Assembly (NCBI GenBank): GCA_027923505.1
Contig: BROI01000028.1
Location: 186,001 to 250,000 of the forward strand
Direction: 5' to 3'
DNA length: 64,000 bases
From: Mayamaea pseudoterrestris
Taxonomy: Eukaryota
Shown: positions 5,715-51,159 of the stretch, in pieces
Layout of the letters: each line of letters begins with the position of its first letter
Position numbering within the stretch: position 1 is the stretch's first letter
Made by a program: the position numbers and the translations under genes
Notes under the pieces: generated by a model
Seen by the model: only the letters and a program-made list of their open reading frames with translations
Databases searched by the model: none
Told to the model about the DNA's origin: nothing

Positions 5715-6005
5715 TAGTTTTACTTGCTTCTACTAGTGCTGTCGCGTAGATCTGTATCAATTCACTTGCAGGATATGATAGCAGCGTGGGCTTTCTCGCT
5801 GCTGGCTTTTTGAAAAACCATGGCGATGAGTGTGAGCGTATTATGTCGCAGTGTGACAATAGCGCGAATGAATGCGAGTCTTAATTGCGCGCCAGTCGTC
5901 GGAACGATGCGCGCATCACCATGGCGGAGCAAAAATCGTAGCCGTTCCATTCCGTCTTTTCACAGCAACTGCCTACCCTGATACATTCAGCAGCAATTTG
6001 TAATA

Positions 6006-9000: not shown

Positions 9001-12000
9001 TAGGCAGTTTAAGCGCTACGGTGGTAGCAGACAAGCTCAGAGATCTTTCAAAGGAGGATTGGACGAACCCGCTGGCTTTGACTGCTAACAAAATGCCAGT
9101 TGGGTTTGTTTCCGCGTACGCGGATAAGTTTCTGCCGCGGCTACAAGAGAAGTACCCGCTAGAGTCACCTGCTGCATTGCTTGGTCGTCTTGTGAAGATG
9201 TGGCATGTGCACGAGACGGCCTGCAATAATGTTTGCGAATGTGACGCCAATATGGCGATGGAGAGTCCGAGCAAATTCGTCGCAACGGTCGACGCTTTGC
9301 AAAGCGTCATCCCACGAAAACGCAAGGTTTATGAAGTAGAACCTTCCAGCACGCTGCTCTCCAGCGGAAAAGACACTAAAAAGGCGGAAGCTCTTGCGAC
9401 GACTGGTGGTTTGGTTGCCAATAACTCGGAGTATGAAGTTGATTTTCGTGCTTCCGATCCACTGGGCTTCTTTTGTGTCTCCTACGAGAACCATATTCAC
9501 GAGTCAGCATGCAAAATTGCCTCTGTAGCTCCGAATGGCCAAGCTCGCTCGCTTGATACTAGGATCCAAGGCGGAACGATTATTATGAGCGCCTCGAATG
9601 AGGGCAACATGGAGCGCGTATCAACTCTAGCACATTTGCAAGAGCTGTATGAACGCGCCCATCGCAACAAGGGTTCGTTGCGTTTGTCGCTTAGTAACAA
9701 GGACGTCACCACTCTTACTATGGCTCAAGCAGAAGACCTCAAGTCGCATTGGTCAAGCGGCGGTAAATGGAAAGACACTACTTTAAAAGGCTGGGCGGGA
9801 GAAAGTCCGCGTCTGCTAGAATATGCCCCTGTTGTTCATCCAGACAGGCTCGCAGAATCGGCGGTACAAGTACTGCCTACTGCCGCAAGGACGGACATAC
9901 CGGTAGACGCACCTGATGCGCGTGCAAGATCAAAATGGATCATGTTTGAATCCACAAGAAATGTTGTGGGTCATTGTCAAGCACCGCCTATATTGAAACA
10001 ACGAACGTCAGCGGGGGAGAAATACGGTACGAAGCGCGTAAGGTTCCCTGCTAATGTAATAAAGGAGTACCGCGTGTATCTCACAGATCGGGCACCAAAC
10101 ATATTTTGGATTGAAAACTCATCAGGAAGTGCTGGGAAAGCCACTACGCAAGCACCATCGAAGGAGGATCTTTTGCAAGCTTTACAATTACAAGGATTTA
10201 AAGAAACGATTACACTTTTGCAGCGAGGCGCGGCCGCAGACATCGAGTCACCAGATGCGCTGACGATACTCTTGAAAGATGTTATAAATCCTTCACTAGT
10301 AAATACTGCCGCTCAATTGAAAATAAACCCGAATGATAAGACTCTTGCCAACATCCATCGAGATCTCTTCATCAAGAAGCAGCTCTTGAAGATTTGCGAG
10401 CGTCAGATACTAGCCGTAAAGAAAGTTAAAGCACTCAAGAAATGGGCTATGATTGAGCTCCAAATACTCTCGATTCATGATCTAAGCTTGAATTCCGTAG
10501 CTGAGAGTGGCAGCCAGTTGGTCCTTGCTGTTTTGAACCGCCACGATGAACCGCCGATTGCGAAGCTGCCAATGATGCCATTTGCAAGTTGCGTGAAGTA
10601 TACGGAATCGCCAATCTACGAAACCCGAGTCAATGTATTGTTAGAATCGCGACAATGGGATATCCATGTGAGTCAGCGCTACTCAAACGGCGTTCAAGTA
10701 CTTCTGGGCTCCGTAAGTGTATCTGCAAAATTCCTCGAAGAATTTTTTCAGGGGAAAAACAAAGCTGGCGACGGCGAAGAAGATTGGCAGACAGTAGATT
10801 GCGACATTGTACCAACTAGCACCAGTAAACTTATTGGCGGACGCATGCTTATAAAGTTTCGAAAAGTGGACATCGACGCCAAAGTTTTCGAGAAAAAGAG
10901 GAAGGAAGCAATTCAAGCAATAAAATTAATGTTTGACTGGATGAAGCAATTCAATATTAAAGAGTTGCACGATTCGGAAAGGGAAATGTATAGTTTGAGC
11001 GTGAACATGCGTATTAGTCAGCAACCACTTCTGGACACAGCCATTCAATTGGAAGAACCCGAGCTAATCCGGCAGGCGATGGACTTAGGCGCTGTTGCTT
11101 CAACGTCAGCACTCTTACTGGCTGAAAAATTAGAAGAAAACTTGTCGAGTTGTGAACGATCCGATAGTAATTCTACTAGCACTTTCACCAACGAGCGGCG
11201 CGCACGTATAAAGCAAATAATAAATCTGCTGGGCAACCTAGAGAGCGAGACATTGCAGGAGGTTTTGGACGTCACCGATCCACCCACTTCGACGTCCCCA
11301 TCCCCAGATCGCGTCATGCTCGAGGCGTCGCCGGAGACGGATGCAAAGATTGTGAAAGTACAAGCTCAACCGGAACAAGATGCTGGTCCACATAGAAAAA
11401 CTGAACTTTCAAAGCTACCTGTGCCGGACATGGAAAGACCTAAAGCACCGGCAAGACAATGGAACTCATTGCCATTAGTCGCGGCGTCTTGCAGACAGAA
11501 GGAAACGTCTGAATTATCTGATTTGAACCTGGAAAGACCACAACCACGGGAACGATCACCCACCCAATTGTCAGCGGAGACAGGTTTTCGCAGAGAGCCA
11601 GAAGCGTCGGAACGCCCTGAACTCGATTTGGATTGGCCGCAACAACGGGAACAATCACCCTCAACCTTGGCATCGCGCAAAGAGGTTGATACGCCGGTGC
11701 TACCTGGATTAGACTTGGAACGGTGGATCCTTTCCCGAGACCGCAAGCATGCATGCTGCTCTCACCAATACCGTGGAGGCTGTCGGAGTGCACGCACCAA
11801 TTGTCGCTTTATCCATATTAACTCACTCTGGGGCCCAGCTAATTTTGAATCGCTCTGGTCTTCCAGCAAATCGTCATTCACGGCAGAAGTGGAACGTCTT
11901 GTTGATCGACATGCCACTTATCGAACATGGGAGGCAGGCAATGGGACAGAGTGGTTCACAGCCAAGTATTCGTCCGTTGCGACTGGCGAGAACAGCAGGC

Positions 12001-12209
12001 ATGCAACGGATCAACACGTCATTTTAGCTGAAGGACAACCTTGCCAACCTTCATGGCAAGGTATCTGCTGGTACCGATCAAAGGAGGAAGCCAGAAGGGC
12101 CCTTGAAAAGACGGTGCACATCACCTTTTATGCATATCAGATTAATAAATTTTCGGCGTTGGGAGGACCGGCCAAGCTGCTGCAAGAGATTTTTAAGAAT
12201 TGTAATTAA
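6006..12209 (+). CDS. Large multidomain protein: 2 helicase-associated (HA) domains, PDZ-like segments, possible C2-like and CCCH-like regions
   Basis: 2067-aa ORF. HA signatures WETMFQRF..LAAWIVQQR..LSKERIRQLE and WLDMFHALVAYKEKHG..LSFWLQTQRRLY. PDZ-like G..SGLRVGD and PLGFF..IASVAPNGQA. C-terminal C-x7-C-x6-C-x3-H. Confidence 0.75.
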   Translation: MDRKPPADATIEPQRKKPRRVGVIALEDIKTVIPASQLPWNNRDIEPVGGLRIPSQGIALPFDIDESDPILQNAISETAGATETAASANPERTDAASRVAATNIGLTDGTASSSGDKSQLPTDKTSDQNSINAHDNSQWSDEIYETFPITIAAKGSLSGTLGLYDATPDMIKRFKCHSNQNICKVTGMTPDGIGTASGLRVGDFFVKRIDAATVALEDYESVFDRLKSAERPLTLLIARLRSQSSKELASTVSAQPQAAAGDASTTNALESAPIEAPSQETLAQPTTKEQTAAASSGKDESDELNTSSTRSERTAVAACDKPSLPSGDNSAPSAKGVEDLEWETMFQRFCKVGEGTTELKAGIETDQALAAWIVQQRSLSEHGNGQLSKERIRQLESNGLAFGRPAVSGPDSSSGATSEPCDTVVADKRLIVMNNAPPTVTKRSMQVPTPRSTGVVANQDKGAPTADWLDMFHALVAYKEKHGTFVVPNNVVHCGKNLSFWLQTQRRLYKNKFRNTKPFLSQQKIDLFRSISLDLDPLGRLSNQDNVPGGTNANTEPPSVNLGSERVELELTRASRNAEKMTTRVLSQESENDSVTAASGRPALADSGPETESARQTQGHFSAHEPPSASIAVMNDVVVNDRLSHGLPVTAGDVLPTTPVCEAAERAHKERCLLESRVMSWLDRRICAAEESAYMDEQNVDITLAEKNERRTAFVQENFLKDNVSSPISQSDCLQFASEERKYLEEVSLEIEQAAAIANNMYTQMTLTDTANTATDTRLEVRNNQLKCHSPTNIAKKQFKMKAFLPSFQVLNGMNKPLWTFDDIDKIARSVEAAPNMKLQGALTVKECKDDDSTICLELIGSKEVSEQIMSAIGNVLGRRCRAHEKCGAVIGVDSLVTDIDWTNKDLRLGNPAFVKETYKAPPSLNIVAADRSREAPLKGVSPKVVSYTHFAKKVKDAIDIEWKQSKIASTFVSGRMWARHKRMFGFLCDDACKCVFSLGSLSATVVADKLRDLSKEDWTNPLALTANKMPVGFVSAYADKFLPRLQEKYPLESPAALLGRLVKMWHVHETACNNVCECDANMAMESPSKFVATVDALQSVIPRKRKVYEVEPSSTLLSSGKDTKKAEALATTGGLVANNSEYEVDFRASDPLGFFCVSYENHIHESACKIASVAPNGQARSLDTRIQGGTIIMSASNEGNMERVSTLAHLQELYERAHRNKGSLRLSLSNKDVTTLTMAQAEDLKSHWSSGGKWKDTTLKGWAGESPRLLEYAPVVHPDRLAESAVQVLPTAARTDIPVDAPDARARSKWIMFESTRNVVGHCQAPPILKQRTSAGEKYGTKRVRFPANVIKEYRVYLTDRAPNIFWIENSSGSAGKATTQAPSKEDLLQALQLQGFKETITLLQRGAAADIESPDALTILLKDVINPSLVNTAAQLKINPNDKTLANIHRDLFIKKQLLKICERQILAVKKVKALKKWAMIELQILSIHDLSLNSVAESGSQLVLAVLNRHDEPPIAKLPMMPFASCVKYTESPIYETRVNVLLESRQWDIHVSQRYSNGVQVLLGSVSVSAKFLEEFFQGKNKAGDGEEDWQTVDCDIVPTSTSKLIGGRMLIKFRKVDIDAKVFEKKRKEAIQAIKLMFDWMKQFNIKELHDSEREMYSLSVNMRISQQPLLDTAIQLEEPELIRQAMDLGAVASTSALLLAEKLEENLSSCERSDSNSTSTFTNERRARIKQIINLLGNLESETLQEVLDVTDPPTSTSPSPDRVMLEASPETDAKIVKVQAQPEQDAGPHRKTELSKLPVPDMERPKAPARQWNSLPLVAASCRQKETSELSDLNLERPQPRERSPTQLSAETGFRREPEASERPELDLDWPQQREQSPSTLASRKEVDTPVLPGLDLERWILSRDRKHACCSHQYRGGCRSARTNCRFIHINSLWGPANFESLWSSSKSSFTAEVERLVDRHATYRTWEAGNGTEWFTAKYSSVATGENSRHATDQHVILAEGQPCQPSWQGICWYRSKEEARRALEKTVHITFYAYQINKFSALGGPAKLLQEIFKNCN

Positions 12210-24113: not shown

Positions 24114-25415
24114 TTACGCACTCTTAGCTTTGCCGCTTTTCGACAATGGAACATTCTCCAGGGACTTGTAGTATTGAATGCCCTCACTCTCCTCCACGTA
24201 GTGGCAGGTCCGCGCAATCCTCCACATGGCCATGTACCACGGCGTCGGATCGTAATTGTACAATCCCTTTGGCTCCAGAAACGCCTTGACCTTTTGTGTG
24301 GCAATGCCAGCATTGTACCAAGGCATTTCGTGAAACAAGTGATGAACGACATGAGTCGATCCAATCGTATGGTGAAAAAAGTCAAAGATTCCATACGGCC
24401 GATCAATGGTGCTGAGGGCGCCCTTGACCCACGTCCACTCTCCCTCGCCGTAGTGCGGAACGCTCGGATCGCTGTGCTGCAACCACGTGTACAAGACCAA
24501 CCAAGCGTTGACCACCGTGTAGGGGCACCAGTACCAAAGAATGACGGCAAGACTTCCATACTTGTTCATGGCGCAGACTAGTCCAATCACAGACGCAACG
24601 ACTGTCACGGTGGACAATAGAATCTTGGCAGAAATCTTGGCCGGAAACATGGGCGAGGATGGACGAAAGTGATCCATGATTCGGCCATTGAGCGGCTTGC
24701 CGTCGTGCCCAACCTTGCCCGTCGATGCCATGCCCAGTAGATACAAGGGCCATCCAATGGCAAGATGCGACCAAATTTGAAAGGCGGCAAAGGCGCCGTC
24801 GCCCATGGCTTCGTGCATGACGGCATAGAACGAATGGCGCTCGCCGTTGACCAAGCCATTGTCGACTGCCGTCGATGGAACGTGCGACTCGCCTTCCGTC
24901 AAGTGATTGGTGCGGCGATGATGCTTGGCGTGAGTGTACTGCCAGGCAAAGTATGGTACCAAGAGTGCTTGGTGCAAGACAAAGCCAACAATGTCGTTGA
25001 CGGTTTGCGAGTCGCTAAAGGCGCCGTGTCCACATTCGTGGGCAATGACCCATGGTCCAGTCATGATGGTTCCCATCCAAAAGGTGTAAAAGGTCCAGCC
25101 AAAGACGAACTTGAGTATTTCCAGTGGATTTGAGAGAGAGGGAAGGTCTGTCGAAAGTACTTGAGAGGTTGCGTAGACAAAGGCTGATGCAATGAGCATG
25201 TCTCGTGCCAGATAGGCGAAACTCCAAAAGTAGCTTCGCTTGAAGCATTCAGCTGGAATGACTGCCTTGATTTCACCCTTGGATGGAAGCTCTGGTGCAT
25301 TCTTGTCGAGAGGATTGTAGCCCGTTTTCCATACTGTTGAGCTTGAGGAATCATTCTTTGCCGACGTGGATGCCGCTTGCTTGACGGCGACTCGTTGTTC
25401 ACCTCCCTTGCCCAT
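24114..25415 (-). CDS. FAD2: Microsomal delta-12 fatty acid desaturase
   Basis: MGKGG start, His boxes HECGH, HAKHH and HVVHH, and the GALSTIDRPYG motif. Confidence 0.92.
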   Translation of the reverse strand: MGKGGEQRVAVKQAASTSAKNDSSSSTVWKTGYNPLDKNAPELPSKGEIKAVIPAECFKRSYFWSFAYLARDMLIASAFVYATSQVLSTDLPSLSNPLEILKFVFGWTFYTFWMGTIMTGPWVIAHECGHGAFSDSQTVNDIVGFVLHQALLVPYFAWQYTHAKHHRRTNHLTEGESHVPSTAVDNGLVNGERHSFYAVMHEAMGDGAFAAFQIWSHLAIGWPLYLLGMASTGKVGHDGKPLNGRIMDHFRPSSPMFPAKISAKILLSTVTVVASVIGLVCAMNKYGSLAVILWYWCPYTVVNAWLVLYTWLQHSDPSVPHYGEGEWTWVKGALSTIDRPYGIFDFFHHTIGSTHVVHHLFHEMPWYNAGIATQKVKAFLEPKGLYNYDPTPWYMAMWRIARTCHYVEESEGIQYYKSLENVPLSKSGKAKSA

Positions 25416-30427: not shown

Positions 30428-32344
30428 CTACACCATTGCAACCTCAGATGAGCCTTCACCAAGTAAGTAATATGTACATTTCTGGTGCAAGTGCTCGCGA
30501 AGAATTGGCTTGGTGAGAAATTCGGTCACACCAGCCTCAATGGCATCTTGCTTGCTGGCATCTACGGCGCAAGCAGTCAATGCCAGGATTGGAATATCCA
30601 ACTTGCACGCCCTAAGTATCCTCGTGGCTTGGCAGCCGTCAAGAATAGGCATTGATAGATCCATAAGAATCATGCCAAAGTGAGTCGCATTGGGCAGTTT
30701 GGTGACGTTACGAGACTTCATCATAATGTCGACTGCTTGCTGGCCATCTTCGGCTAGCTCGTATTCGAGATTAAAGTTCGACATCATTCGGGCGAGTAGC
30801 TTCCTGTTGACATGATTGTCGTCAACAATCAAGACTTTATTCACTTGAGAGTCGATATTAAACAAGTCAAGGCTTGGTTTTCGCTTGTGCGCGGCACTAT
30901 TAACGACAGGTTTATCTGCGATGATAAGTCGGCCATACGCTGTATCGAACGAAGCGTCTAACAAGGATGTCGACTCCTTCACAGCCTCTCTGGGACGGTC
31001 TTCTATTGCAACAGTTGCTTGTGTCTTGCAGAGTGCTGCCGGGGAAAATGTGGTCTGGTCTGCTCCTACTTCAAGGCTTTCTTTAAAATGCAATGTCTGA
31101 AGCTCTGGAAGGACATGAAGTTGGATGTAAATTGTGAATTTGCTCCCGATGGCTTCCGTGCTTGCGACATGGATGGTACCACCCATCTTTCGAGCAAGCT
31201 TGGATAAAATCGCCAAGCCCAATCCAGTGCCACCATGCACCCGATATTCTGTCAGCTTCGACCAAGAGTATGGGACAAAGATTCGTTCAAGAAGGCCGTG
31301 CGATATACCACAACCCGTGTCACTGACTTCAATTTTCAACACACAAACATTCGCCGCTTCCACCGAGGTGCCGCTCGTCCCTTCTTCCGCGCTGAGAAGT
31401 CGCAAGGCGGACTCGTCGTCATGCGTACTGGCAAATGTTGTTTCCGAAGAGTCCGTGGGCTTGTCACCGTCGAAGACCAGCTTGTTCACGCCTTTGTCGG
31501 CATTCGTGTTGATCCAATTCTTCTTGAGCGCTTCGTCGAAGCACACCATCGAAGCGGTAAACTCAATAACGCCTTCATCGGTGAACTTTGCTGCGTTAGA
31601 CAGCAAGTTGTATGCAATTTGAAGGATTCGCGCACTGTCTCCAAGCGCGACACTTGGAACGTTTGGGGCGATATGGCACTTGTATTGAACGCTGGGCTTT
31701 TGTCGTAACTGCATCTCCGTACTAGTACCGACCGACTCGAGCAGCTCTCGTAGATCAAACTCTTTCTCTTCGAGTTCTAGTCTCCCTGACTCGAGCTTGC
31801 TAATGTCAAGAACGTCGTTGACGAGTCTGACCATTAGGTGTGTCGACTGTTGGATGCTCGCTAGAGCGCGCTCTTGGTTCGGCAACAAATGCTCGTCCTC
31901 GAGGAACGCGCAAAAGCTAGTGACGGCGAACAAGGGATTACGAATCTCATGACACAGGAACGCCATGAAAGTGACCAATTTGCGCCTCGACTCCTCACTT
32001 TCTTCATTTAGCCGGCGTAGCTCCTGGATTCCTGCATCAAGTGAGCTCATTAGGTTTGGAACAAGTGGAACGAGATAGCAAGCTGTTGCCAGTGATATGA
32101 AGGCGGTAAACCAATTGATGATGAAAAATGCGTTCTGATTTGAAAATCCGAGACAGCGCATAAGATGCCCTGTGCCGCACAGGAAGATGAAGAGTGCAAA
32201 AAGGATCAGCAAGACCAGAATCTTGACCGGCATTGATGTGAGACGCGGATATCGATAAAGAGAAATCAATAACTGGATAGGTATCGAGAAGTATGCCACG
32301 GTTATAATCATGTCATCGACTCGCATTCCTCGCATTGATGCCAT
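30428..32344 (-). CDS. Ethylene-receptor-like hybrid histidine kinase (3-TM ethylene-binding domain, HisKA, HATPase, receiver; no GAF)
   Basis: DMIITVAYFSIP and FIFLCGTGHL. H-box CHEIRNPL, N-box NAAKFT, G1 DTGCG, G2 GTGLGL. Receiver VDD...MDLSMP...KP. Confidence 0.9.
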   Translation of the reverse strand: MASMRGMRVDDMIITVAYFSIPIQLLISLYRYPRLTSMPVKILVLLILFALFIFLCGTGHLMRCLGFSNQNAFFIINWFTAFISLATACYLVPLVPNLMSSLDAGIQELRRLNEESEESRRKLVTFMAFLCHEIRNPLFAVTSFCAFLEDEHLLPNQERALASIQQSTHLMVRLVNDVLDISKLESGRLELEEKEFDLRELLESVGTSTEMQLRQKPSVQYKCHIAPNVPSVALGDSARILQIAYNLLSNAAKFTDEGVIEFTASMVCFDEALKKNWINTNADKGVNKLVFDGDKPTDSSETTFASTHDDESALRLLSAEEGTSGTSVEAANVCVLKIEVSDTGCGISHGLLERIFVPYSWSKLTEYRVHGGTGLGLAILSKLARKMGGTIHVASTEAIGSKFTIYIQLHVLPELQTLHFKESLEVGADQTTFSPAALCKTQATVAIEDRPREAVKESTSLLDASFDTAYGRLIIADKPVVNSAAHKRKPSLDLFNIDSQVNKVLIVDDNHVNRKLLARMMSNFNLEYELAEDGQQAVDIMMKSRNVTKLPNATHFGMILMDLSMPILDGCQATRILRACKLDIPILALTACAVDASKQDAIEAGVTEFLTKPILREHLHQKCTYYLLGEGSSEVAMV

Positions 32345-34231: not shown

Positions 34232-34782
34232 GATACAGTCGTTGTGGATGCCAAACTAGTGATTGTAATTAAGAACGAGTCGAGAGTCCAGAGCTTTGTG
34301 TTAGCGCTAATCGTCGGCGATGAGGCAAGGAGCTGAGGTTGATTGATATATCCAACGATTGGCTTATCGTCAAGCAGTCCGCTTGGAAGATCTTATGCTT
34401 TGGTTGTAATGGCAAAAAGCAACGACCCTGCTCAAGGGTCAACGGGTCAATGATCTCGAAACAAGATCCAGATCCACGAATTTCTATTTCCGTGTCGCAC
34501 TGTTTCCACTTTTGTATCGCACTGGTGTTGAACGATCGTCATGCAAATCTGGCGCGGCAGCCAAACGAAGGAACGGCAAACGCCTTGCGCTGCCTTTGGT
34601 ATTCATCACTTTGTTTCAAGTACAAATCGGTTGCTACATTGCGTTTGTGTGCATAGTAGGCAAACACCGTATCTTGCATATAGTGCGATTAAGTAACCAG
34701 TCTAAGGAGTGATTTAGCAGAAGCTAAGCGATTCCTCTGCGCATCCAAAAGTCCTTCTCCATTGGCACTTTCTGAGGGCATC

Positions 34783-37700
34783 ATGACATCGAACGCTGAT
34801 GCTGATGCCGACAAGGATCTTGATGCACCAACTATCCCATCCACCATGCAAGATCTTTTTGAGCAAGTGGTGGGTTGGATACGTGATACGCCAGTCACCG
34901 CAAACATGCAGCCATCCACCGACACCAAGCTCCGCATGTACGGCCTCTACAAGCACGTTCACGACGGTCCCTGCGTTGGCGAACAGCCTTCCGTGTTGCG
35001 CGTCGAGGCGCTCTACAAGTACAAGGCCTACAGGGCGTGCGAAATGTTGAAAAAGGAGGAAGCCATGGAGCAGTACGTTCAAGTGGCTGGTGCGCAAAAC
35101 AATTGGCTCGGGCATAAGATTTTAACGCACTATCAGTCTTGGTGCGCGGCGCACGGCAAGTATGCCACGTCGGCTGTCATACCAATCGCTTCAGACTCGA
35201 ATTCAATTGCAACCAAAATGCTCTCATTGCTTGGGATTCGTCCACTAGTGCCGCGGGGTCAACTCGATATATCCGTTTCCGACTTGCTCTTTGCCATTTC
35301 GTCGTGCTGTTCCCTCTCTGGGTCGTTGCGCTCCAAGGAGCAAGCCGTTCAAGACTTGTTCGCAAGCAGCAGCAGTGATACGCACCACGCAGTGGTGGGC
35401 TTGTCGGCTCGAACATTGATGGATCTATACTTTTGCGCCAAAAAGTATCCAAAGGGATCGCAACTCATCATGAGTCCGGCAATCAACGTTCCTGGTGTCG
35501 TCGCCGTGTTGAAGCACCACGACTTGGAGATTGTGGCGATTGACCTTCCAATGGACGCCAACGGACAAACGCGCATTTCTGTTGACTGCGATGCGATTGA
35601 AAGCGCCGTCACGGCCAAGACGGTGGCAATCATGGTGGTGCATCCGTTTGGCATGCCGTCGGCGAGCGACAAGGAAATGAGTCGACTGCGGAAACTCGCA
35701 AATGAGCAGAATCTAAGCTTGATGGAGGATTGTGCCGAATGCTTTACGGGATTATCAAAAGATGCCTTTCAGCCGAGCACTCTGGCCGACGTTAATTTTT
35801 ATTCGTTTGGATGGATCAAGACGGCAACCGCTCTTGGAGGTGGCGTGGCTCTCGTGAGCGATGACAAGATCGCAAAAGACATGAACAGGATACAGCATTC
35901 ATCATATCCGCTACAATCTACATGGGTCATTTTATGGAGAACTGTGAAGGGATTGTGGATCCATCTCATGACTGCATCGCCCGTTTTGTTCGCGCTGTTT
36001 GCATATGCTCTTAACTTGGTTGGCCTTGACCTGGACGCCGCCGTGTACGCAGTGATTCGAGGATTCTCGTCGCCGTCTCCCGCCGAAAGGCTACGTCAGA
36101 TACGCCAACGGCCATGCGCTGCCTTGCTATCCATGCTGAACAGACGGTTAAAGCAATCGCGCAACAATGTCGTTCCGTCTGTGGAAGCGAGGAAACGACG
36201 TTGCGAAACGGTTTTAAAATCATTGCGTACCAGCAATCCTGACACTGTCGGTCATCTGGATGACAGTTCAACCTTTTGGTTGTTTCCTATAATATCTAAG
36301 AATCCAAAACGCTTTTGTCAGGCGCTTCGGAAAAATGGATACGATGTGACGAGGGGCATGTCCCAGTTAAAGTGTGTGGATGACGGCCAGTCATGTCCTC
36401 GAGCGTCAGAATTGATGCAAAGTGCCGTATATTTACCCATTTCCAGTCGCAGCATGAGCGATTCGCAGCTTTGTCGTCTGACAGAATTGATACAAGCAGC
36501 AGAACCCGAAACGTCGAAGCCTCCGCTCAAAGCGTACAACACTTGGAGAGTCAGCTGGAAAACTGCTGTATTCGTCGGCGCAATGCTGGTGATGCTGTCA
36601 TCCCTACGATATACAATGCTCTTCTTTATAAATGTCTTCATACTGCTCGGCCTTCTTGCACTTGCAACTTCTGTGATACTCCGATGGAGCGTTTCTGATT
36701 GGTACCTAGACCATTCATCTAATTTTGTCAAGTATAGCCACTTGCTGACGGGTCATGACGAGCGCAAGTCGGACATTTCCAGTCGAAATGTGTTGAAAGC
36801 GATGGATGTGCTTAAAGTCCCAGCTAACTCATTGGGCGAAACGAGAAAAGTGTTTCTTACCGGATCGACTGGCTTTGTCGGGTCCAACTTACTACGCAAT
36901 CTTTTGCTGAATCGCAAGGAACTCTTGATCGAGTCCGTCACTCTCCTGTGTAGGTCAAAGCGTGGCCAATCGGCGAGGTCACGGGTAGACAAGCTCTTGA
37001 GTGAGCCTCAATTTTCCTTTTTGTCTGACGACGAGAAACTGTCGGCTGTTCAAGTTGTTGAAGGAGAAGTGTCAACGCCTAATGTCGGGTTGAGCGAGAC
37101 GGATTACAATGCAATAATAGAAGACTCAAAGTTTACCCACGTCATTCACTGTGCCGCCTCGGTCAGCTTTACTCAAGAGCTTCCCGATGCCGCACGGACG
37201 AATATCGCTTCTTCACTGCATCTTCAGAAGTTGACCGCTATGATAACGTCGGGCTCTGCTATTTTTGTCCACGTAAGCACTGCTTTTGTCCACGGCGGTG
37301 ATACCGGAACCGCGGCCGAGCCCTTGCCTGAAAAGCTTTACTCGCTCGGAAAGTACGACCCAGCGCGACTTTACTCCTCTATGCTTGGATCCCAATTTTA
37401 CGCTGCAAAGGCAATGCATGAACTCGGTTTTCACAATTCATATACTTTTAGCAAGTGCGTTTGCGAGCATCTACTATCAAGAAATTCTTGTGTACGAACA
37501 ATCATCATTCGACCTAGTATTGTTGGACCGGCCGTTGAATTGCCTTGGGAGGGATGGGCTGGTGCGAAGCCTTCCACGATTGTTGCTGCTGCTTGCTTAT
37601 ATATGGCCTACCAATGGAATCTCTGGTCGTTTGGCAATCACAGAGTTCCTTGCATTCCTGTCGACATTTTAAGTTCGTTCATTGTTGCCAAAGTTTTTGC

Positions 37701-40700
37701 AGTGGAACACATTGAGGACGCGTCGGAAATTCTTGTACCGTCGAGCGCGGATAGCGATTCGGCTAGATCTAGCGCAATCAGCTTCGAAAAGATAAAGCGA
37801 GCTGATAGCACTGCGTCGTCATCAAGTGACTCTTGGCCTGATTCAGCCGCGTCTCAGCATTCCCTTGATATATACAATGCAGCCTGGAATGGTGCATCGC
37901 CCGAGTCGTCGTCTTTTACATGGATTGACTACGCTGCGGCAATATGTCAAGTTGGTGCTATCACCGGCTATTTCTCCAGACCAACTGCCTTCGTCAGTCT
38001 GGGCTTTGCAAAAAGGATTGTTCCCTGGGCATCATTTTCTATAAATTCCTTCCGTCGGCTTCATGCTCTTGTTGTTGATATACCTTTCAATACGATAAAA
38101 AAGATGGGAAACTTTTTTGGATATGATACGTCGCTCATGAAAAAGTTGCACCCGTTTCTGGAGTTGCCACTTCTCTTCTATCCGTTTATGAATTCCAAAT
38201 TTTATTTTGATTCTGACTTGACGGCGCCAGTCGAATTAAATGGGCAGCGATACATGTTTAGCTGCACTGCCGCGGCTCATCGTTTTATGGTCAATGACAG
38301 AAACAATACGTCGGAAAACTCTGCGAAACCATTTCTAGGTTCAACCGACAAGATTTATTCCTGCCGGATAGCGGGCTCACTTCATCAGCAAACCTGTCCC
38401 GATGCTTGGTGGGCCTTGACGCAGCCCGAAGGCGGCTACTTTACGCGATTTGCAGGATGGATAATAGTCAAGATTTTAAGAGCCACTTGCACCGAAGTAA
38501 CAGTTGATGTGGATTCGTTTCGATCAATAATCACGCATTTGGAAAACGAAGCAGAGCCAATGACGGTCATACTCGCTCCGACGCATCGGTCCTTCATGGA
38601 TTTCATAGTCTTAAGTTATGCTCTATTTGCTCTCCCTGAATTAAAGGTGAAAATCCCTCACATCGCTGCCGCGGACGACTTTGAGAGACTCCCTTACATC
38701 GGGTGGCTGGCGACACGCTTAGGGGCCTTTTTTGTTCGAAGAGGGAGAAAGCATAAAGACCCAAAGTTGCGGGATAACCTGTCGTCAATTACGAATTCGG
38801 CTACGCATCATAGCCCTTTCATAGAGGTTTTTATCGAAGGGACAAGAAGTAGAGACCGACGATTTCATCGTCCGAAAACTGGTTTCTTGCGCTGCATTCA
38901 GAATCAAGGCCCGATTGTGGTAGCTCCAATTACCATCAATTACGAGCGTGTTCCTGACCAGCATGCCTTGGCTGCTGAGGCGACAGGAGGACTAAACAAG
39001 GGTTTGAACGTGTTTTCTCTAATCAACTGGCTTCGTCGAGTATCGGGTGGAAAAGTGCGTCTGGGGCGCATTCATATTGCCGCGTGCCAGCCTATTTCTG
39101 CTACGGACGGTAGCAACCAGCTTGATGCGCGCATTTTAGCCGATATGATTCAGTGCAGACAACAAGAGCAAGTTTGTATATCGGACTATCATATCAAAGC
39201 CGCATCCAGCTTGCTAAAATTAAAAGTTGAGACTGTGGAGGATGCAATGCGACGTGTGGACTGCAAATTCTGGCCTAAGACAAATGCTGGATCGTCGCTG
39301 CTAGACGTTCCTACTGACGAAACTGAGCTTCTGACTGTCTTACTACAAGCAAGTCCAACTCTGTCCAAGCTCTTTGTCGAGTCGCATCCAAATTGGTCAA
39401 ATTGGCTGAACCGTTTGAACGAAACAACTTTAGACGAATCACTGCGCGGAGTGGACTCGGTGCGTCAAATTATTGACAGCTTAGTGCCCATGTTCGACGA
39501 GGCCGATCGATGTACCGGAGAGGCTCTACGAATATTAACGGAAAAAGGCTTTTCGAACCCGAAACCTGAGCATGCTTTGCAGAAAACGCTGACATTTAGC
39601 AACAAGTTGCCTCATGGACTCATCCGAGCTTCATTGGCAATGAAATTACATGGGTCTTTGGTCACGTACGATGAGACCATGCCTTATTTCAGCGACGGAG
39701 CAGTAGCGAAACAAAGAATACCAAACTCGGACGAATCGCTTGGCTTCTGGGGCTTTCACGATTCATCTTTTGTCGTGCAAACGGATAGCCAAGGTTCCCC
39801 GTTCGTAACCATGCAAGGCAAACGATACACTCTTAGCAACGCTCGTATGAGGAAGATACTGCCGTTTATACAGGAGGAGATGAATGTCAAGGTAGATCTT
39901 TTCCGTGAAGCGTTTCTTGACAATGAAAAGATTGCATTTCCTGGCTGCTGCATCGTCGCGGAAGACCTTGAGCTCCTAAAACCAACCTGTTTGTCGGTTA
40001 CATATGAAGAAAGAGTTCGTCATGGAACCGGTCATTGCCAAGAGGACGTGTTCGCAATCCGCAGCGGCCACTTACCTCGTATTCCGGATCTTGTTGTATG
40101 GCCAAAAACTCAGGCGGAAGTCCAAAGCATTGTTCGCCTTGCCAAGGAAAAGTCTTGGTGCCTTATACCGTTCGGCGGAGGAACAAACGTTTCGCTTGCG
40201 ACTCGTTGTCCATCCCTTGAAGTTGAACCTCGTCCTATTGTGTCCGTCGACATGAGAAAAATGTCCAAGATACTCTGGGTCGACGAAGAGAATGGCCTAG
40301 CTCGCGTTGAGGCCGGTATTACTGGGCGTCATTTGGTGGAGCAAATGGCACAGCGGGGGTATACAATTGGGCACGAACCGGATAGTATTGAATTCAGCAC
40401 TCTTGGTGGTTGGGTTGCTACAAAAGCCAGCGGTATGAAGCGTAACAAGTACGGCAACATTGAAGATATCGTCAAGGCTGTTCGTGTGATTGGCCCGAAC
40501 GGTGTCTTGCAACATGGCAGTGATGGAGAAGTTGTCTGGGGACGTGAAGCAAGCGGCATGGATCTTTGCTCGGTCATGTTTGGATCAGAAGGGTGTCTCG
40601 GAATTATAACGAGCGCCACGCTACGAATTTGGCCAGAGCCTGAAGTGAAAGACTACGATGGCTTCATCTTTCCAGACTTTGAAATGGGTGTTCGCTTCGC

Positions 40701-41490
40701 TCGGGGCGTTTCCAAGCTCGGGACTCGAATGCCTGCCTCGGTGCGCGTGCTCGACAACGAGCACTTTCGACTGGGACAGGCTCTTCGTCCAGCTTCCAGA
40801 TCGCCGTTTGAGACCATTTTAAAGCCAATATTGCAGTCGCTACTGCACAAGTTCGGTAATTTTGAATCAAAGAAAGTCACTTGTGCTACCATTGGATATG
40901 AAGGCTCGAGGAACGAAGTTCGATTGCAACAGACGTCTCTCGCCAAGCTGGCAAAGGAGCACGGTGGCATTCGTCTTGGAAGTCAGGTTGGCAAGGACGG
41001 TTACAATTTGACGTTTATGATTGCATACCTTCGAGACTTTGCCATGACTTACCACTTTCTTGGCGAGTCATTCGAAACGTTTGTGCCGTGGTCCAACGTT
41101 CAGCAAGTCGTGGAGCGTACCAAAGCTCGCATTTTTAAGGAGCATGCCGATCGATGTCTTCCAGGCAAGCCTTTTGTCGGCGCCCGCGTGACACAGCTTT
41201 ACCACGAAGGCGCTTGCATATACTTTTACTTTTGCATGAACTTTGAGAATGTGCCTGATCCCAGCCACGTTTATTCTGAAATTGAGCACGCGGCTCGTCG
41301 TGAAATCATGGACAATGGTGGATCTGTCAGCCACCATCATGGAATAGGCAAGGTCCGCGCCGAGTATCTCAAGGAAATCAATTCTTCAGCCTTTATGGAT
41401 AGTCTGCAAATGTTTAAAAAAGGCGTTGATCCATTGAACATATTCGGGGCGCGCAATAGTGCATTTGCGACCGACAAGCCCGAGGAGTAA
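34783..41490 (+). CDS. Ether-lipid multienzyme: ACBP - DegT-type PLP aminotransferase - TM - fatty acyl-CoA reductase - DHAP acyltransferase (GNPAT-like) - alkyl-DHAP synthase (AGPS)
   Basis: One uninterrupted ORF. ACBP: LRMYGLYK..GPC. DegT: VVHPFG, EDCAE, SFGWIKTATALGGG. FAR: TGSTGFVG, HCAASVSF, YTFSK, IRPSIV. Acyltransferase: HRSFMD, GAFFVRR, FIEGTRSR. AGPS: PFGGGT, GHEPDS.EFSTLGGW, GSEGCLG, CIYFYF, SHHHGIG. Confidence 0.92.
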   Translation: MTSNADADADKDLDAPTIPSTMQDLFEQVVGWIRDTPVTANMQPSTDTKLRMYGLYKHVHDGPCVGEQPSVLRVEALYKYKAYRACEMLKKEEAMEQYVQVAGAQNNWLGHKILTHYQSWCAAHGKYATSAVIPIASDSNSIATKMLSLLGIRPLVPRGQLDISVSDLLFAISSCCSLSGSLRSKEQAVQDLFASSSSDTHHAVVGLSARTLMDLYFCAKKYPKGSQLIMSPAINVPGVVAVLKHHDLEIVAIDLPMDANGQTRISVDCDAIESAVTAKTVAIMVVHPFGMPSASDKEMSRLRKLANEQNLSLMEDCAECFTGLSKDAFQPSTLADVNFYSFGWIKTATALGGGVALVSDDKIAKDMNRIQHSSYPLQSTWVILWRTVKGLWIHLMTASPVLFALFAYALNLVGLDLDAAVYAVIRGFSSPSPAERLRQIRQRPCAALLSMLNRRLKQSRNNVVPSVEARKRRCETVLKSLRTSNPDTVGHLDDSSTFWLFPIISKNPKRFCQALRKNGYDVTRGMSQLKCVDDGQSCPRASELMQSAVYLPISSRSMSDSQLCRLTELIQAAEPETSKPPLKAYNTWRVSWKTAVFVGAMLVMLSSLRYTMLFFINVFILLGLLALATSVILRWSVSDWYLDHSSNFVKYSHLLTGHDERKSDISSRNVLKAMDVLKVPANSLGETRKVFLTGSTGFVGSNLLRNLLLNRKELLIESVTLLCRSKRGQSARSRVDKLLSEPQFSFLSDDEKLSAVQVVEGEVSTPNVGLSETDYNAIIEDSKFTHVIHCAASVSFTQELPDAARTNIASSLHLQKLTAMITSGSAIFVHVSTAFVHGGDTGTAAEPLPEKLYSLGKYDPARLYSSMLGSQFYAAKAMHELGFHNSYTFSKCVCEHLLSRNSCVRTIIIRPSIVGPAVELPWEGWAGAKPSTIVAAACLYMAYQWNLWSFGNHRVPCIPVDILSSFIVAKVFAVEHIEDASEILVPSSADSDSARSSAISFEKIKRADSTASSSSDSWPDSAASQHSLDIYNAAWNGASPESSSFTWIDYAAAICQVGAITGYFSRPTAFVSLGFAKRIVPWASFSINSFRRLHALVVDIPFNTIKKMGNFFGYDTSLMKKLHPFLELPLLFYPFMNSKFYFDSDLTAPVELNGQRYMFSCTAAAHRFMVNDRNNTSENSAKPFLGSTDKIYSCRIAGSLHQQTCPDAWWALTQPEGGYFTRFAGWIIVKILRATCTEVTVDVDSFRSIITHLENEAEPMTVILAPTHRSFMDFIVLSYALFALPELKVKIPHIAAADDFERLPYIGWLATRLGAFFVRRGRKHKDPKLRDNLSSITNSATHHSPFIEVFIEGTRSRDRRFHRPKTGFLRCIQNQGPIVVAPITINYERVPDQHALAAEATGGLNKGLNVFSLINWLRRVSGGKVRLGRIHIAACQPISATDGSNQLDARILADMIQCRQQEQVCISDYHIKAASSLLKLKVETVEDAMRRVDCKFWPKTNAGSSLLDVPTDETELLTVLLQASPTLSKLFVESHPNWSNWLNRLNETTLDESLRGVDSVRQIIDSLVPMFDEADRCTGEALRILTEKGFSNPKPEHALQKTLTFSNKLPHGLIRASLAMKLHGSLVTYDETMPYFSDGAVAKQRIPNSDESLGFWGFHDSSFVVQTDSQGSPFVTMQGKRYTLSNARMRKILPFIQEEMNVKVDLFREAFLDNEKIAFPGCCIVAEDLELLKPTCLSVTYEERVRHGTGHCQEDVFAIRSGHLPRIPDLVVWPKTQAEVQSIVRLAKEKSWCLIPFGGGTNVSLATRCPSLEVEPRPIVSVDMRKMSKILWVDEENGLARVEAGITGRHLVEQMAQRGYTIGHEPDSIEFSTLGGWVATKASGMKRNKYGNIEDIVKAVRVIGPNGVLQHGSDGEVVWGREASGMDLCSVMFGSEGCLGIITSATLRIWPEPEVKDYDGFIFPDFEMGVRFARGVSKLGTRMPASVRVLDNEHFRLGQALRPASRSPFETILKPILQSLLHKFGNFESKKVTCATIGYEGSRNEVRLQQTSLAKLAKEHGGIRLGSQVGKDGYNLTFMIAYLRDFAMTYHFLGESFETFVPWSNVQQVVERTKARIFKEHADRCLPGKPFVGARVTQLYHEGACIYFYFCMNFENVPDPSHVYSEIEHAARREIMDNGGSVSHHHGIGKVRAEYLKEINSSAFMDSLQMFKKGVDPLNIFGARNSAFATDKPEE

Positions 41491-46173: not shown

Positions 46174-46685
46174 GTTGCAGTTTCTCTTTGTATCAAGTGA
46201 GAACAAGCCTGGCTGAGTTAGGTAACAAGCCGATGGACGAGAAATGAACGAAAAGGATCAGCACGTTCGAAGATCCTTGCAGCGTCGAGCAGCGGATGAC
46301 AATCTTCTAAATCGAAGCGTGTGAATCGAGTCGTGGAGAAATGGATGGTTCCCATCGCCTGTCACAAATTGTCGCAGCGCCACTCATTCAGAACCGGTAC
46401 GATGCTAGAACAATTCGAATGACGCCACCGACATCACGCAAAATGAAGGCGATCGAAGAGCGCGACCATGAGTCAGTGCATTAATACACACAAAACGCTT
46501 GCAACTCCTTGTGATTGGACTGCAAATAGCCTACCGCAATCGCCACCAAACCTTGTTGTGGATAGTTTAGAAAGGATTATAGAAGCTCAGCTAGTGGACA
46601 AGTAGCAACAGTGAACCAACGAGTAGTAGAAGCCAGCATTTCCAATCAGAACAATCGCGCCTTCGCTTTTTCTGTTTCAAGCATC

Positions 46686-49600
46686 ATGACGGAACCAGTG
46701 AGCAGCGACAGCCACCACTCCGCCGAGATGATGGAAGTTTCTCTCAGAGACGACAAGTTCTTGGAACATGAATCAGCCAAGAAGGAACCACAATTGCAGC
46801 TGGAGCGATCATGCTGTGGCTTGCGCAGCAAACCAATTCCAAAGTCTGCCGCTGAACTTGGCGTATGGGAAGCATCGCTGGAGGACCGGAGTAACTGTAT
46901 ATCAAGATGGACGCTCGACTACTTGACGCCGTTGCTCAAGCTTGGCTCGCACAAGGTACTTGATGCAGGGGACATGGGAGTGCCCTCCAAGCAGGATTCT
47001 GCGGAACGCGCATATGCGGAAACGTTACGAATCTTCAAGGCGCAGTGCGTCAAGTGCAAAGCCAAGAATGAAGAGATTTTGGCCAAGCGCGAGGCAGTGC
47101 TAGCCAAATGCCAGACGGAGGAGGCGCGTCTTAAAGTCAAGCCGGCGAAGTTGCATGAACCATCGATAGCCTTTGCGCTAGCCAAGGCGTTTGGTCTGGG
47201 GCAGCTGGTGGTTGCTGTTCTTTACTACATTGTTGGAGCGATTCTCGGATTTGCTCCAGTCATTATCTTGAATGATCTTGTCAAGTTTTTCGAGTCTGGC
47301 CTTTCCATCAACGAGTATGATGGCTACGTGCATCCGTGGGCCGAGGTTGCCGCGCTGGCAGTGGTCCCAGTCATTATTACCTTGCTGCAGACGCGCCATT
47401 CAGTCATCATGTCACACTGCGCCGTCTTTGTGCGAACGGCCGTTAGCACCATGCTGTATCGCAAGGCGCTGCGTGTTTCGGCGGCGGCGCGAGCCAAGAC
47501 TAGCACTGGTCAAGTCATTAATATGATGTCGAACGATACTGCTCAGCTGCAGCGATTCTTGCAATTTGCCGGTATGATTTTGGTGGCACCAATCCAGATT
47601 ATCATTGCGTTGGTTCTCATCTTTCAGCAAGTGGGTAATGCGACGTGGGTGGGAGTAGGTTTCATGGTGATGTTGATTCCTGTAAATACCTTTATCTTTT
47701 CCATCATTTCCAAGCAACGCCGCGCAGTGCTCAAGTATTCGGACATGCGCGTTCGAACAATGAACGAAGTACTAGCAGGGATTCGCATTATCAAGTTCTA
47801 TGCATGGGAGCGTCCCTTTGGGAAAGAAATTGGACGGTTGCGTGGCGAGGAGCTCAAAGCTCTCACCAAGCTTGCTTACACTGTCGCGATTGGATTCTCA
47901 CTCATTTTGATGTCGGCGCCGCTGATCCAACCGATTCTGGTGTTTCTGACTTATGTTGGAATTCAAAGCGAATCGCTGACTGCTGCTACAGCATTTACTA
48001 CTGGTACGTGTTAATCGACAGTTGTTGCAGCCCCCCTGGACTTGATCTAACGCTTTATGCTTTTTCAATCGTAGTCGCCTTGTTCAACATTATGAGAATG
48101 CCATTCGCATTTCTTCCGATGGGTTTTCTTCAGTACATTCAATCGCGTATTTCATTGCGCCGACTGGAACGATACTTGGATCTACCGGAGCTCGAGTCTT
48201 ATGTTGAACACAGCGGTCCGCCGGACGACATGGACGATGCTGCCTCCAAGGAAGGCAGTGTTGCTATTCGGCATGGTAGTTTCAGCTGGATTAACCCTGA
48301 CAGTGAACCCATTCGCGCCGTGAATGAGCCAGATGTATCTCGCAAGGCGCGCAAGTCGAAGAAAAGCGTCCGATTTTCTGGTGTTGACCACGACATGAAA
48401 GTTAGCATTCATAGCTCTGTAAGCCAGGCCAGTCAAGCGAGCGAAAGTCCAAAAACAGCAACCATTACGCTGCAAGACATATCCTGCACGATAAATTCAG
48501 GCGAACTTGTTGCTGTTGTCGGTCCTGTTGGCTCCGGAAAATCTAGTTTTCTGTCGGCTATTTTGGGCGAAATGGAACCTATCAACAACTCAAAGGTTTA
48601 CATTTCGCGCCCTGCTGATGCGGCCCTTGGATATGTCTCATATTGTGCGCAAACGCCATGGGTCGTTAATGATACGCTGCGTGGTAACATTTTGTTTGGC
48701 CGAGAATACGACGAAGAGCGATACATGTCTGTTGTTGCTGCTTGCGCTTTGGAGGACGATCTTGCTATTCTACCTGCAGGAGACGAGACGGAAATTGGCG
48801 AACGAGGGATCAATCTCAGCGGCGGGCAGAAGGCGAGAGTTAGTCTTGCTCGCGCAATGTATTCCGGAGAAACGCGTATCGTGTTGCTTGACGATCCGCT
48901 GTCGGCTGTTGATGCGCACGTGGGCGAGCACATTTTCCAGCACGCAATATCCGGTCAGCTATGTGCCGGCGTCACTCGCATTCTTGTCACTCACCATGTG
49001 CATTTACTTTCGAGATGTGACAAAGTGATTGTCCTCGACCACGGGCGGATCGCGCACTGCGGAACATATGCAGATTTGGTCGCTCAAGGCGTCGAGTTTG
49101 CCGGCGCCGTCGACGCTTCCAAGGTAAAAGGCGTAACCGAGGATGCAGTAGTGGAGACTGAAAAGGATGTTGGAAAAGATATCAAGAAGGCGGCGGCTCC
49201 GACCATTGACAATTTGGCTGCTCTACAGAAGAACGGCAAAAAATTAGTCAAGGACGAGGAGCGTGAGGTTGGAAGTGTATCAGGCTCTGCATACATCAAA
49301 TATGCACGAGCTGGAGGTGAGTGGAACATTTTCACGTGGAGTTGCTAGTCGAGAGAGATTCTCACTTCGTCCCACTTGCCATTGTAGGATTGTGGATTGC
49401 CGCCGGAGTTGTCGTAATCCAAGGGTTGGGCAGGGTGGCGGAAGTCATGTCGAGTTTTTGGCTAGCGCTATGGGCAAAGCGGAGCCTAGCGGCGCAAGAG
49501 AGTGGCGATCCATTTTCTCGTCAAGAGCAAGACCGCTATCTTGGAATTTATGCTCTGTTTGGTATGTTGGGAATTCTAGGGCTCACAGGTCGCGCATTGC

Positions 49601-51159
49601 TTATCGCAGTGCACCGTCTGGGTGCTTCACAGAAGCTGCATGATAACATGGCGGAAAGTACGCTACGTGCACCGGTGGCGTTTTTTGACGTGACACCTCT
49701 CGGGCGAATTTTAAATCGCTTTGCTGCCGACATGGACAAGATTGATCTGGAGCTCACTCAGTCTGTTTCGCAGGGTGTATCTACAATCTTTAGCGTGTTG
49801 GGAGCTGTTGCTGCCATGGTTGCGGCCACGAAGGGTACTTTTCTTGTTCCTCTGATTCCCATCGGCTATTTGTATTATCTGATCCAGAAGTGGTTTCGCA
49901 AGACTTCGACCGAGCTACAGCGAATTAATAGCATCGCAAATTCTCCTATATTCACCGACTTTTCGCAGACCTTGTCTGGCACCTCAACGATTCGTGCATA
50001 CGGAGAGGAGCATCGGTTCTTTGACCGATGTAAAACGTCGTTCGATACACAAAATGCATCATACTTGCTTGTCCAACTTGCGAGTAGCTGGCTTGGGATT
50101 CGCTTGGATATTCTTGGTGGATTGATGGGCGCGTTCATTGGCGCCATTGCCGTTGCCACATTGCCCATCGGTTTGATTCCAGCAGGTTGGCTGGGTCTGG
50201 CATTGTCTTACAGCATTGAGGTAACAAATTTTTTAAAGCTCGGTGTACGTATGATCGCGACAATTGAAGCGCAAATGAATTCGGTTGAACGAGTCCTCGA
50301 TTATACAAGCAACATTCCGCAGGAGGCACCAGAGTTCATTCCAGAAAATGACCCAAAACCTGGTGAATGGCCGAAGGAAGGAGGCATCACGCTTAACCAT
50401 GCATCAATGCGCTACAGGGATGGTCCTCTCGTTTTGAAAAATATATCGCTTACTATTAAGGGCGGTGAGCATGTTGGAGTTTGTGGGAGAACGGGTTCAG
50501 GCAAATCGAGTTTGATGACGCTGCTGTTCCGTATCTGTGAACTTGAGCCGGATGGAGGGAAACTTGTCATTGACGATATTGACACATCGACCATTGGCGT
50601 GTCACCACTTCGTACAAACCTTTCGATTATTCCTCAAGACCCTGTCCTCTTCTCGAACACGGTACGGTACAACATAGATCCATTTGGAGTTGCGACTGAC
50701 GAAGAGATATGGGAGACACTTCGGAAGGTACAAATGGACGATGTGGTGAGAGAGCTGTCCATGGGATTGGACGAGCAGGTGGCCGAGGGCGGAGAAAACT
50801 TTTCGCAAGGCCAGCGCCAGCTGATGTGTATTGCCCGATCACTTATTCGTAAACCAAAGATTTTGGTAATGGACGAGGCGACAAGTTCTATAGACAACGC
50901 GACCGATGGCCTCATTCAAGAAATGATTAGAGTTAACTTCAAGGATGCGACAGTCCTGACAATTGCGCATCGGCTTAACACCATTATGGACAGTGATCGG
51001 GTGCTTGTGTTGGATGATGGGAATGTTGCAGAGTTTGATAGTCCTCATGCTCTTTTACAGAAGGATGGCAGCTTGTTTCGAGCTATGGTCGAGAAAAGTA
51101 AGGATGCTCAGTCGGAGACGTTGGTGGTCGACGATGACAACAACAACGATCGACTTTAA
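46686..51159 (+). CDS. ABCC/MRP-type transporter (TMD1-NBD1-TMD2-NBD2, no TMD0); introns 48004-48074 and 49317-49387
   Basis: IKFYAWE; NBD1 [34 protein letters not shown]2 [18 protein letters not shown]. Two 71-nt GT-AG introns join three ORFs. Confidence 0.93.

Follow-up and report, generated by a model that had tools for sequence, protein, structure and literature searches.

Locus and domain layout

The window analysed here is a stretch of 64,000 nucleotides from Mayamaea pseudoterrestris (GCA_027923505.1, contig BROI01000028.1, positions 186,001 to 250,000, forward strand). A single unbroken frame of 2242 residues runs on its plus strand from 34762 to 41490 and has its first ATG at 34783. 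The open reading frame (ORF) from this ATG (34783..41490) encodes a five-domain ether-lipid megaprotein, and the analysis centred on its second domain, which resembles DegT-type aminotransferases dependent on pyridoxal 5'-phosphate (PLP). Residue numbers were counted from the frame start at 34762 and domains were called with Pfam and NCBIfam profiles.

The order of parts, all on the plus strand, is acyl-CoA-binding domain (ACBP), DegT-like domain, probable membrane hairpin, fatty acyl-CoA reductase (FAR), acyltransferase (AT) of the dihydroxyacetone phosphate (DHAP) type, and alkyl-DHAP synthase (AGPS). The ACBP lies at 34852..35085 (residues 31-108; Pfam 60.4 bits, cut-off 28.3). The complete DegT-like fold, delimited from Pfam, alignments and a structural model, occupies 35239..36531 (residues ∼160-590). 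Within it the Pfam family DegT_DnrJ_EryC1 (PF01041) was matched at residues 207-380 (61.3 bits, cut-off 19.8), covering only positions 39-201 of the 360 in the profile. The FAR was recognised as NAD_binding_4 at 36856..37680 (residues 699-973; Pfam 142.4 bits). A Pfam Acyltransferase match at 38542..38937 (residues 1261-1392), for which the best NCBIfam matches were PlsB, is of the PlsB/GNPAT type and is presumed to be a DHAP acyltransferase. The final part, 39400..41490, carries Pfam FAD_binding_4 and FAD-oxidase_C at residues 1775-2229 and shares 43% identity across 584 residues with the AGPS encoded in a Gemmatimonadota operon (L001, below). By this sequence comparison it is an AGPS. An ether-lipid initiating module is therefore represented in full by NAD_binding_4, the PlsB/GNPAT-type acyltransferase, and FAD_binding_4 with FAD-oxidase_C at AGPS-level similarity. 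Relatives of the megaprotein are named alkyldihydroxyacetonephosphate synthase in public databases. The C-terminus of the megaprotein reads ...DKPEE and lacks an SKL-like peroxisomal tail.

A preliminary description of the window had reported no short-chain dehydrogenase/reductase (SDR) ketoreductase in the ORF. The Pfam scan agreed: all Rossmann-type matches (Epimerase, GDP_Man_Dehyd and RmlD) fell inside the FAR, at residues 697-886, and no second SDR or ketoreductase domain was detected in the ORF.

Catalytic residues and fold of the DegT-like domain

The PLP-binding aspartate and Schiff-base lysine named in the same description were located where it had placed them. EDCAE occupies residues 322-326 (nucleotides 35725-35739), with the Asp323 codon at 35728, and SFGWIK occupies residues 348-353, with the Lys353 codon at 35818-35820. 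When the family profile was compared with solved sugar aminotransferases in HMMER, ED-x-A and SFG-x-x-K aligned with the matching motifs of 7n63 and 3bn1. Both catalytic positions were invariant, in bacteria and eukaryotes, in alignments A1 (37 rows) and A3 (77 rows). A pattern search of the 111 homologues of at least 900 residues found the lysine motif S-F-G-x-I-K in 110 and ED-x-A/G in 103.

An AlphaFold model of the domain was generated from the 77-row alignment (pLDDT 91.2, pTM 0.91). Strong matches to sequence profiles of known families are confined to the N-terminal half of the domain; the model shows both domains of the fold-type-I DegT architecture, the C-terminal one included. Superposition on ArnB (1mdo) gave Z 34.0 and a root-mean-square deviation (rmsd) of 2.6 for 333 of 439 residues at 16% identity, over model range 2-423. 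PseC, perosamine synthase and others superposed similarly (Z 33-34, rmsd 2.6-2.8, ∼333 residues), and Foldseek was also used. Profile score, fold, catalytic lysine and catalytic aspartate all agree with membership of the PF01041 superfamily.

No NCBIfam equivalog came near its cut-off, the best scores being 38.9 bits against 375 for the domain and 57-101 bits against 631 for bacterial homologues. Only generic DegT cluster names were obtained for the domain from the ESM Atlas. On sequence and model the domain is a member of the DegT superfamily, because of its fold and catalytic residues, and it lies outside every characterised DegT family, because the profiles score far below the NCBIfam cut-offs.

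The same residues and modelled fold indicate that the domain is apparently a catalytically competent PLP-dependent aminotransferase. DegT enzymes are dimers, and a catalytically silent scaffold, such as a dimerisation module of the megaenzyme, would account for the presence of the domain and for a match to just half of the Pfam profile. It would leave the invariance of lysine and aspartate across bacteria and eukaryotes unaccounted for, as well as a full fold modelled at high confidence and stand-alone bacterial members numbering in the hundreds (542 confirmed stretches, described below). A silent role would greatly surprise us.

Helical subdomain and membrane-like stretch

A hydrophobic insertion had also been described in the domain. 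The stretch, WVILW...LFALFAYALNLVGL at nucleotides 35923-36027, is real but is not peculiar to this ORF, and it aligns gap-free with bacterial stand-alone homologues of ∼400 residues. It was modelled as two confident helices, at model residues 228-246 and 248-260 (protein residues 387-419). These belong to a subfamily-specific helical subdomain at 35920..36156 (+; residues ∼387-465), defined from the alignments and the model, in which ∼80 extra helical residues (model 228-306) have no counterpart in sugar aminotransferases. Its two moderately hydrophobic helices are followed by helices with family-conserved arginines (RGF, RxRP, RRL). Judged from the alignments, the "insertion" is a helical subdomain common to the whole DegT subfamily, bacteria included, and no diatom novelty.

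The best 19-residue mean Kyte-Doolittle (KD) value of the family-helix stretch is 1.8 in this protein. The same measure had a median of 1.28 in 37 family members and was at least 1.0 in 26 of them. Residues ∼597-645 (36550..36696, +), between the aminotransferase and the FAR, are clearly membrane-like, their largest 19-residue mean KD being 2.55 vs 1.8 for the family helices. This second stretch probably forms a two-helix membrane hairpin.

Homologues and conservation of the fusion

An exhaustive HMMER search with residues 130-640 as the query returned 3840 representatives at E ≤0.001, including 444 at ≤1e-30. The matches fell into two groups, long fused proteins and many stand-alone proteins of ∼400 residues with 33-36% identity over the whole fold. 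DegT, FAR and acyltransferase families were present in all 72 long matches, and AGPS families in 33 of these as well. The named sources of fused proteins were six, all diatoms: Fistulifera, Nitzschia, two Thalassiosira species, Discostella and the entry Psemu1, which would be Pseudo-nitzschia. Smaller fusions among the matches joined DegT with DAO/DAO_C (P0129) or with an acyltransferase, in the orders DegT-AT (P0156) and AT-DegT (P0184).

A division of the long proteins into two architecture classes, with and without AGPS, was rejected. At least one short form (P0022) is a split gene call; it shares a 90%-identity cluster with a 2218-residue Fistulifera protein, and an AGPS piece lies on the same contig. 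The 39 of 72 forms without AGPS may therefore be artefacts in part.

A tree of 275 domain sequences was calculated with FastTree. One clade with SH-like support of 98 held 100 of the 102 fused forms together with six fragments. No particular bacterial sister of this clade emerged, and the idea of one specific bacterial source for the eukaryotic domain was set aside. The tree was quick and midpoint-rooted, and therefore neither a donor nor a direction of transfer is claimed.

Bacterial loci and neighbouring genes

One genome per prokaryotic species was scanned with a closer sequence set (A2), and 542 of 597 candidate stretches were confirmed. The best 80 were kept as loci, from Gemmatimonadota, Chloroflexota, Cyanobacteria, Planctomycetota, Betaproteobacteria, Acidobacteriota, Verrucomicrobiota and others. 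Every ORF lying up to 5 kb from a kept locus was clustered by BLAST, and neighbours were scanned against Pfam and NCBIfam.

At least one lipid, DHAP or FAD-oxidase partner was present at 14 of the 80 loci. PlsC-type acyltransferase genes were found at 10 (L001-L005, L013, L024, L050, L064, L080), FAR-acyltransferase genes at 5 (L001-L005) and AGPS-family genes at 5 (L001-L004, L080). A GlpD-like glycerol-3-phosphate dehydrogenase gene accompanied 3 loci (L013, L024, L050), and a FAD enzyme resembling DprE1 or sugar-lactone oxidase was adjacent or fused at 4 (L007, L069, L077, L078).

Three Gemmatimonadota loci (L001, L003, L004) have the gene order AGPS, FAR-AT, DegT-like, PlsC-AT, in which stop codons overlap the starts of following genes. 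In L003 and L004, genes for a GT4 glycosyltransferase and for a metallophosphoesterase stand ahead of these four. Neither a reductase gene nor a keto-sugar-forming enzyme was found within the cluster in the neighbour scans. It encodes all textbook steps to an alkyl-acyl lipid except ketone reduction, and the aminotransferase occupies that place. The order in Opitutaceae (L080) is AT, AGPS-like gene, DegT-like, the AGPS-like gene being 30% identical across 518 residues (E 8e-75). The loci from Rhodothermales, Chloroflexia and Thermomicrobiales (L013, L024, L050) have AT, DegT-like, GlpD-like; GlpD models scored 250-271 bits on the last gene, under the cut-off of 360, yet were the best match by far. 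The recurrent bacterial partners are of three kinds, making DHAP, acylating it, or exchanging acyl for alkyl. As annotated from sequence, these enzymes converge on a glycerol-phosphate skeleton with a C2 ketone.

A further Gemmatimonadota genome carries adjacent genes for Lipid_desat (PF10520), AGPS and FAR-AT (L081, G093:C6:100200-116200, minus strand, ∼5649-10502), and the aminotransferase was not found in this genome at E 1e-40. We take PF10520 to be the CarF/PEDS1 family. The operon would be a plasmalogen-type variant outside Myxococcota, beside the amino-type variant in the same phylum. Because the L081-type operon has Lipid_desat, AGPS and FAR-AT instead, the DegT gene with its small acyltransferase looks like an add-on branch after AGPS.

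The FAD_binding_4 partners of L007 (6513-7955), L069 (12-1637), L077 (6422-7999) and L078 (7947-10577) were considered as AGPS and rejected, with 24% identity over 119 residues and DprE1 and sugar-lactone oxidase as best NCBIfam matches. These pairings come from Nitrospirales, Planctomycetaceae and Acidobacteriaceae, and the FAD enzyme precedes the aminotransferase or is fused to it. From sequence, the two look like a pair that would oxidise an alcohol and then aminate the ketone.

A glutathione S-transferase (GST) gene lies directly upstream of the aminotransferase at 11 of the 80 loci (L008, L012, L031, L033, L038, L039, L047, L049, L054, L055, L057; Betaproteobacteria and some Cyanobacteria), all among those without a lipid, DHAP or FAD-oxidase partner. 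A divergently transcribed thiamine pyrophosphate (TPP) enzyme is often present too. GST and TPP enzyme were set aside as functional partners; in Betaproteobacteria and Cyanobacteria their presence looks like synteny within lineages. BLAST clustering revealed no universal neighbour within 5 kb of the 80 loci and, self-matches aside, the largest clusters consisted of ORFs antisense to the aminotransferase gene itself.

Proposed reaction

From domain anatomy, conservation of the catalytic residues, fold and gene associations we infer a substrate, a reaction type, a product and downstream steps. The best explanation of the sequence comparisons is that a distinct DegT subfamily acts in glycerolipid metabolism and not in nucleotide-sugar metabolism. 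More specifically, the domain would aminate a DHAP-derived lipid intermediate at its C2 ketone (alkyl- or acyl-DHAP in the family, alkyl-DHAP in the diatom gene), a proposal for which we consider the balance to be even. The preliminary description had proposed amination of alkyl-DHAP. A competent-looking enzyme and lipid-gene contexts support the proposal in part; its chemistry is inferred, and alkyl-DHAP does not stand as the general substrate of the family.

In the proposed pathway, acyl-CoA would be delivered by the ACBP, a fatty alcohol would be produced by the FAR, acyl-DHAP would be formed by the acyltransferase, and the acyl chain would be exchanged for alkyl by AGPS. AGPS requires the ketone of acyl-DHAP, and therefore amination in line must follow AGPS, on alkyl-DHAP. 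The aminotransferase would convert the C2 ketone of alkyl-DHAP, and possibly of acyl-DHAP too, to an amine with an amino acid as donor. This reaction would yield 1-O-alkyl-2-amino-2-deoxyglycerol-3-phosphate (O-alkyl-serinol phosphate), from which N-acylation by another acyltransferase could give an ether lipid resembling ceramide phosphate. The helical subdomain, with its moderate hydrophobicity, and the hairpin next to the domain may hold the active site at the membrane.

Cj1437 is established as converting DHAP to serinol phosphate by transamination (PMC11800397), and the N-terminal part of RtxA does likewise (PMC3222319). Both precedents use free DHAP. The present domain might do so too: the fusion would merely share a DHAP pool, the ether-lipid branch would run normally, and serinol phosphate would go on to a head group or be N-acylated to a single-chain N-acyl-serinol phosphate. 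The AT/DegT/GlpD-like operons (L013, L024, L050) and P0129, in which DegT is fused to a GlpD-like part, need just glycerol-3-phosphate, the transaminase and one acyltransferase, and the family-conserved arginines of the extra helices could bind a phosphate. However, such a domain and the fused acyltransferase would be competitors for DHAP, and no pathway would be formed. The tight AGPS, FAR-AT, DegT, AT order with overlapping genes would also go unexplained, as would the family-conserved, moderately hydrophobic helices. Use of free DHAP is accordingly judged distinctly improbable.

A different PLP reaction could also serve the lipid pathway, for example by turning the fatty aldehyde from the FAR into a fatty amine, by decarboxylating phosphoserine to phosphoethanolamine for use in head groups, or by aminating a keto-sugar head group linked to lipid. 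Cj1436 is reported to be a PLP-dependent phosphoserine decarboxylase (PMC11800397). The domain stands directly ahead of the FAR in the fusion, and the FAR part resembles thioester reductases, those of the MxcG type included. MxcG-type reductases work with an aminotransferase. DprE1-like oxidase partners (L007, L069, L077, L078) and the GT4 gene of the Gemmatimonadota cluster would suit a sugar substrate. A fatty aldehyde as the shared substrate is opposed by bacterial partners (GlpD-like, PlsC-AT) that come without any FAR, and a keto-sugar by the absence of a keto-sugar-forming enzyme from the diatom fusion and from the Gemmatimonadota cluster. We consider a reaction of this kind unlikely.

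Several observations weigh against amination of a DHAP-derived lipid ketone. The nearest solved relatives are all nucleotide-sugar aminotransferases. No natural O-alkyl-serinol lipid is known to us, and no description of such lipids was found in the open-access full texts searched; nor was any paper found there linking a DegT-type aminotransferase to ether-lipid enzymes. The DprE1-like pairing would fit a lipid-linked keto-sugar substrate equally well. Co-occurrence of stand-alone homologues with AGPS, FAR and acyltransferase genes had been suggested as a check. L001-L005 and L080, together with the loci and fusions that have GlpD-like or acyltransferase partners, bear it out in part, but 66 of 80 had no lipid- or ketone-related neighbour within 5 kb.

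Co-occurrence across genomes points the same way. Among 151 sampled Gemmatimonadota genomes, several of them small and perhaps incomplete, the aminotransferase occurred in 2 and a strong AGPS (at least 59% identity) in 2, the two being shared only in G001; AGPS matches at E 1e-60 or better were present in five. Of five genomes checked, three (G003, G004, G005) contained the enzyme without a true AGPS, and therefore alkyl-DHAP cannot be the general substrate of the family. Acyl-DHAP, DHAP or another lipid-bound ketone must be the substrate in those three.

Comparison with known systems

The nucleotide-sugar aminotransferases (ArnB, PseC, GDP-perosamine synthase, HCAN_0200) share with the domain the fold, the ED-x-A aspartate and the S-F-x-x-x-K lysine. 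They differ from it by an identity of only 14-21%, by the ∼80 extra helical residues present here, and by their partners, which are sugar-nucleotide enzymes and not the lipid or DHAP enzymes of the present subfamily. The domain was not assigned to the nucleotide-sugar class (ArnB, PseC, WecE, DesI): no equivalog cut-off was reached and the fusion contains no sugar-nucleotide enzyme.

Cj1437, of the Campylobacter jejuni capsule, is presumably a DegT-family protein, and the N-acyl-serinol synthase presumably carries an aminotransferase domain. Cj1437 and the N-terminal part of RtxA, of rhizobitoxine synthesis, carry out the chemistry proposed here, a PLP-dependent amination of a DHAP skeleton at its C2 ketone that leads to a serinol-phosphate skeleton. 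Both use DHAP in soluble form, the one for a capsule amide and the other for a toxin, and neither is described as serving membrane lipids.

Tetrahymena FARAT and M. xanthus MXAN_1675/1676 place FAR and a GNPAT-type acyltransferase on a single chain and have AGPS next to them, as here (PMC13012113). They are described there without an aminotransferase, whereas the diatom chain also carries ACBP, aminotransferase and AGPS. The terms "DegT", "aminotransferase" and "diatom" are absent from that paper, a 2026 study of the origin of plasmalogen synthesis.

By analogy with sphingolipids made via serine palmitoyltransferase, the proposed product would likewise combine an amide with an alkyl amino-alcohol, as in (dihydro)ceramide phosphate. 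The route would differ in its DHAP backbone, in an ether chain made by AGPS, and in nitrogen entering by transamination and not by condensation of serine.

Other genes in the window

A fatty-acid desaturase gene lies at 24114-25415 (-), ∼9 kb upstream of the megaprotein gene, in proximity alone and with no link shown. A hybrid histidine kinase with an ethylene-receptor-like N-terminus (ETR1_N, HisKA, HATPase_c, receiver) is encoded at 30428-32344 (-). Three overlapping ORFs at 46611-51159 (+), with ABC_membrane, ABC_tran, and ABC_membrane plus ABC_tran respectively, are probably one full-length ABC transporter gene split by introns or frame changes. An ORF of 2067 residues at 6006-12209 (+) has a short helicase-associated (HA) domain as its sole recognised family. 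The window also contains genes for Timeless, an annexin and an O-GlcNAc-transferase-type glycosyltransferase (GT41), and a tRNA-Ala with anticodon AGC; together with the diatom relatives of the megaprotein, these features mark it as eukaryotic and diatom-like.

Implications

Diatoms and scattered bacteria may make membrane lipids on 2-amino-2-deoxyglycerol (serinol), N-acylated and ceramide-like ether or ester lipids, without serine palmitoyltransferase. We put this forward tentatively, at somewhat less than even confidence. It would cover Gemmatimonadota and Opitutaceae, which have AGPS, and Chloroflexota and Rhodothermales, which have a GlpD-like enzyme and an acyltransferase, with alkyl- or acyl-DHAP being transaminated. 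The bacterial four-gene operon could be expressed as a unit, which makes the proposal directly testable.

If it is correct, the textbook route to ether lipids branches, with the ketone of alkyl-DHAP being aminated and not reduced on the new branch, and a function would be provided for a large unannotated DegT subfamily, comprising the 3840 representatives and the confirmed genomic stretches reported above. Serinol lipids might pass for odd-chain dihydroceramides in lipidomics, and new lipid biomarkers would be on offer. A hybrid of glycerolipid and sphingolipid would then be present in diatoms, which are major primary producers of the ocean, and in several bacterial phyla.

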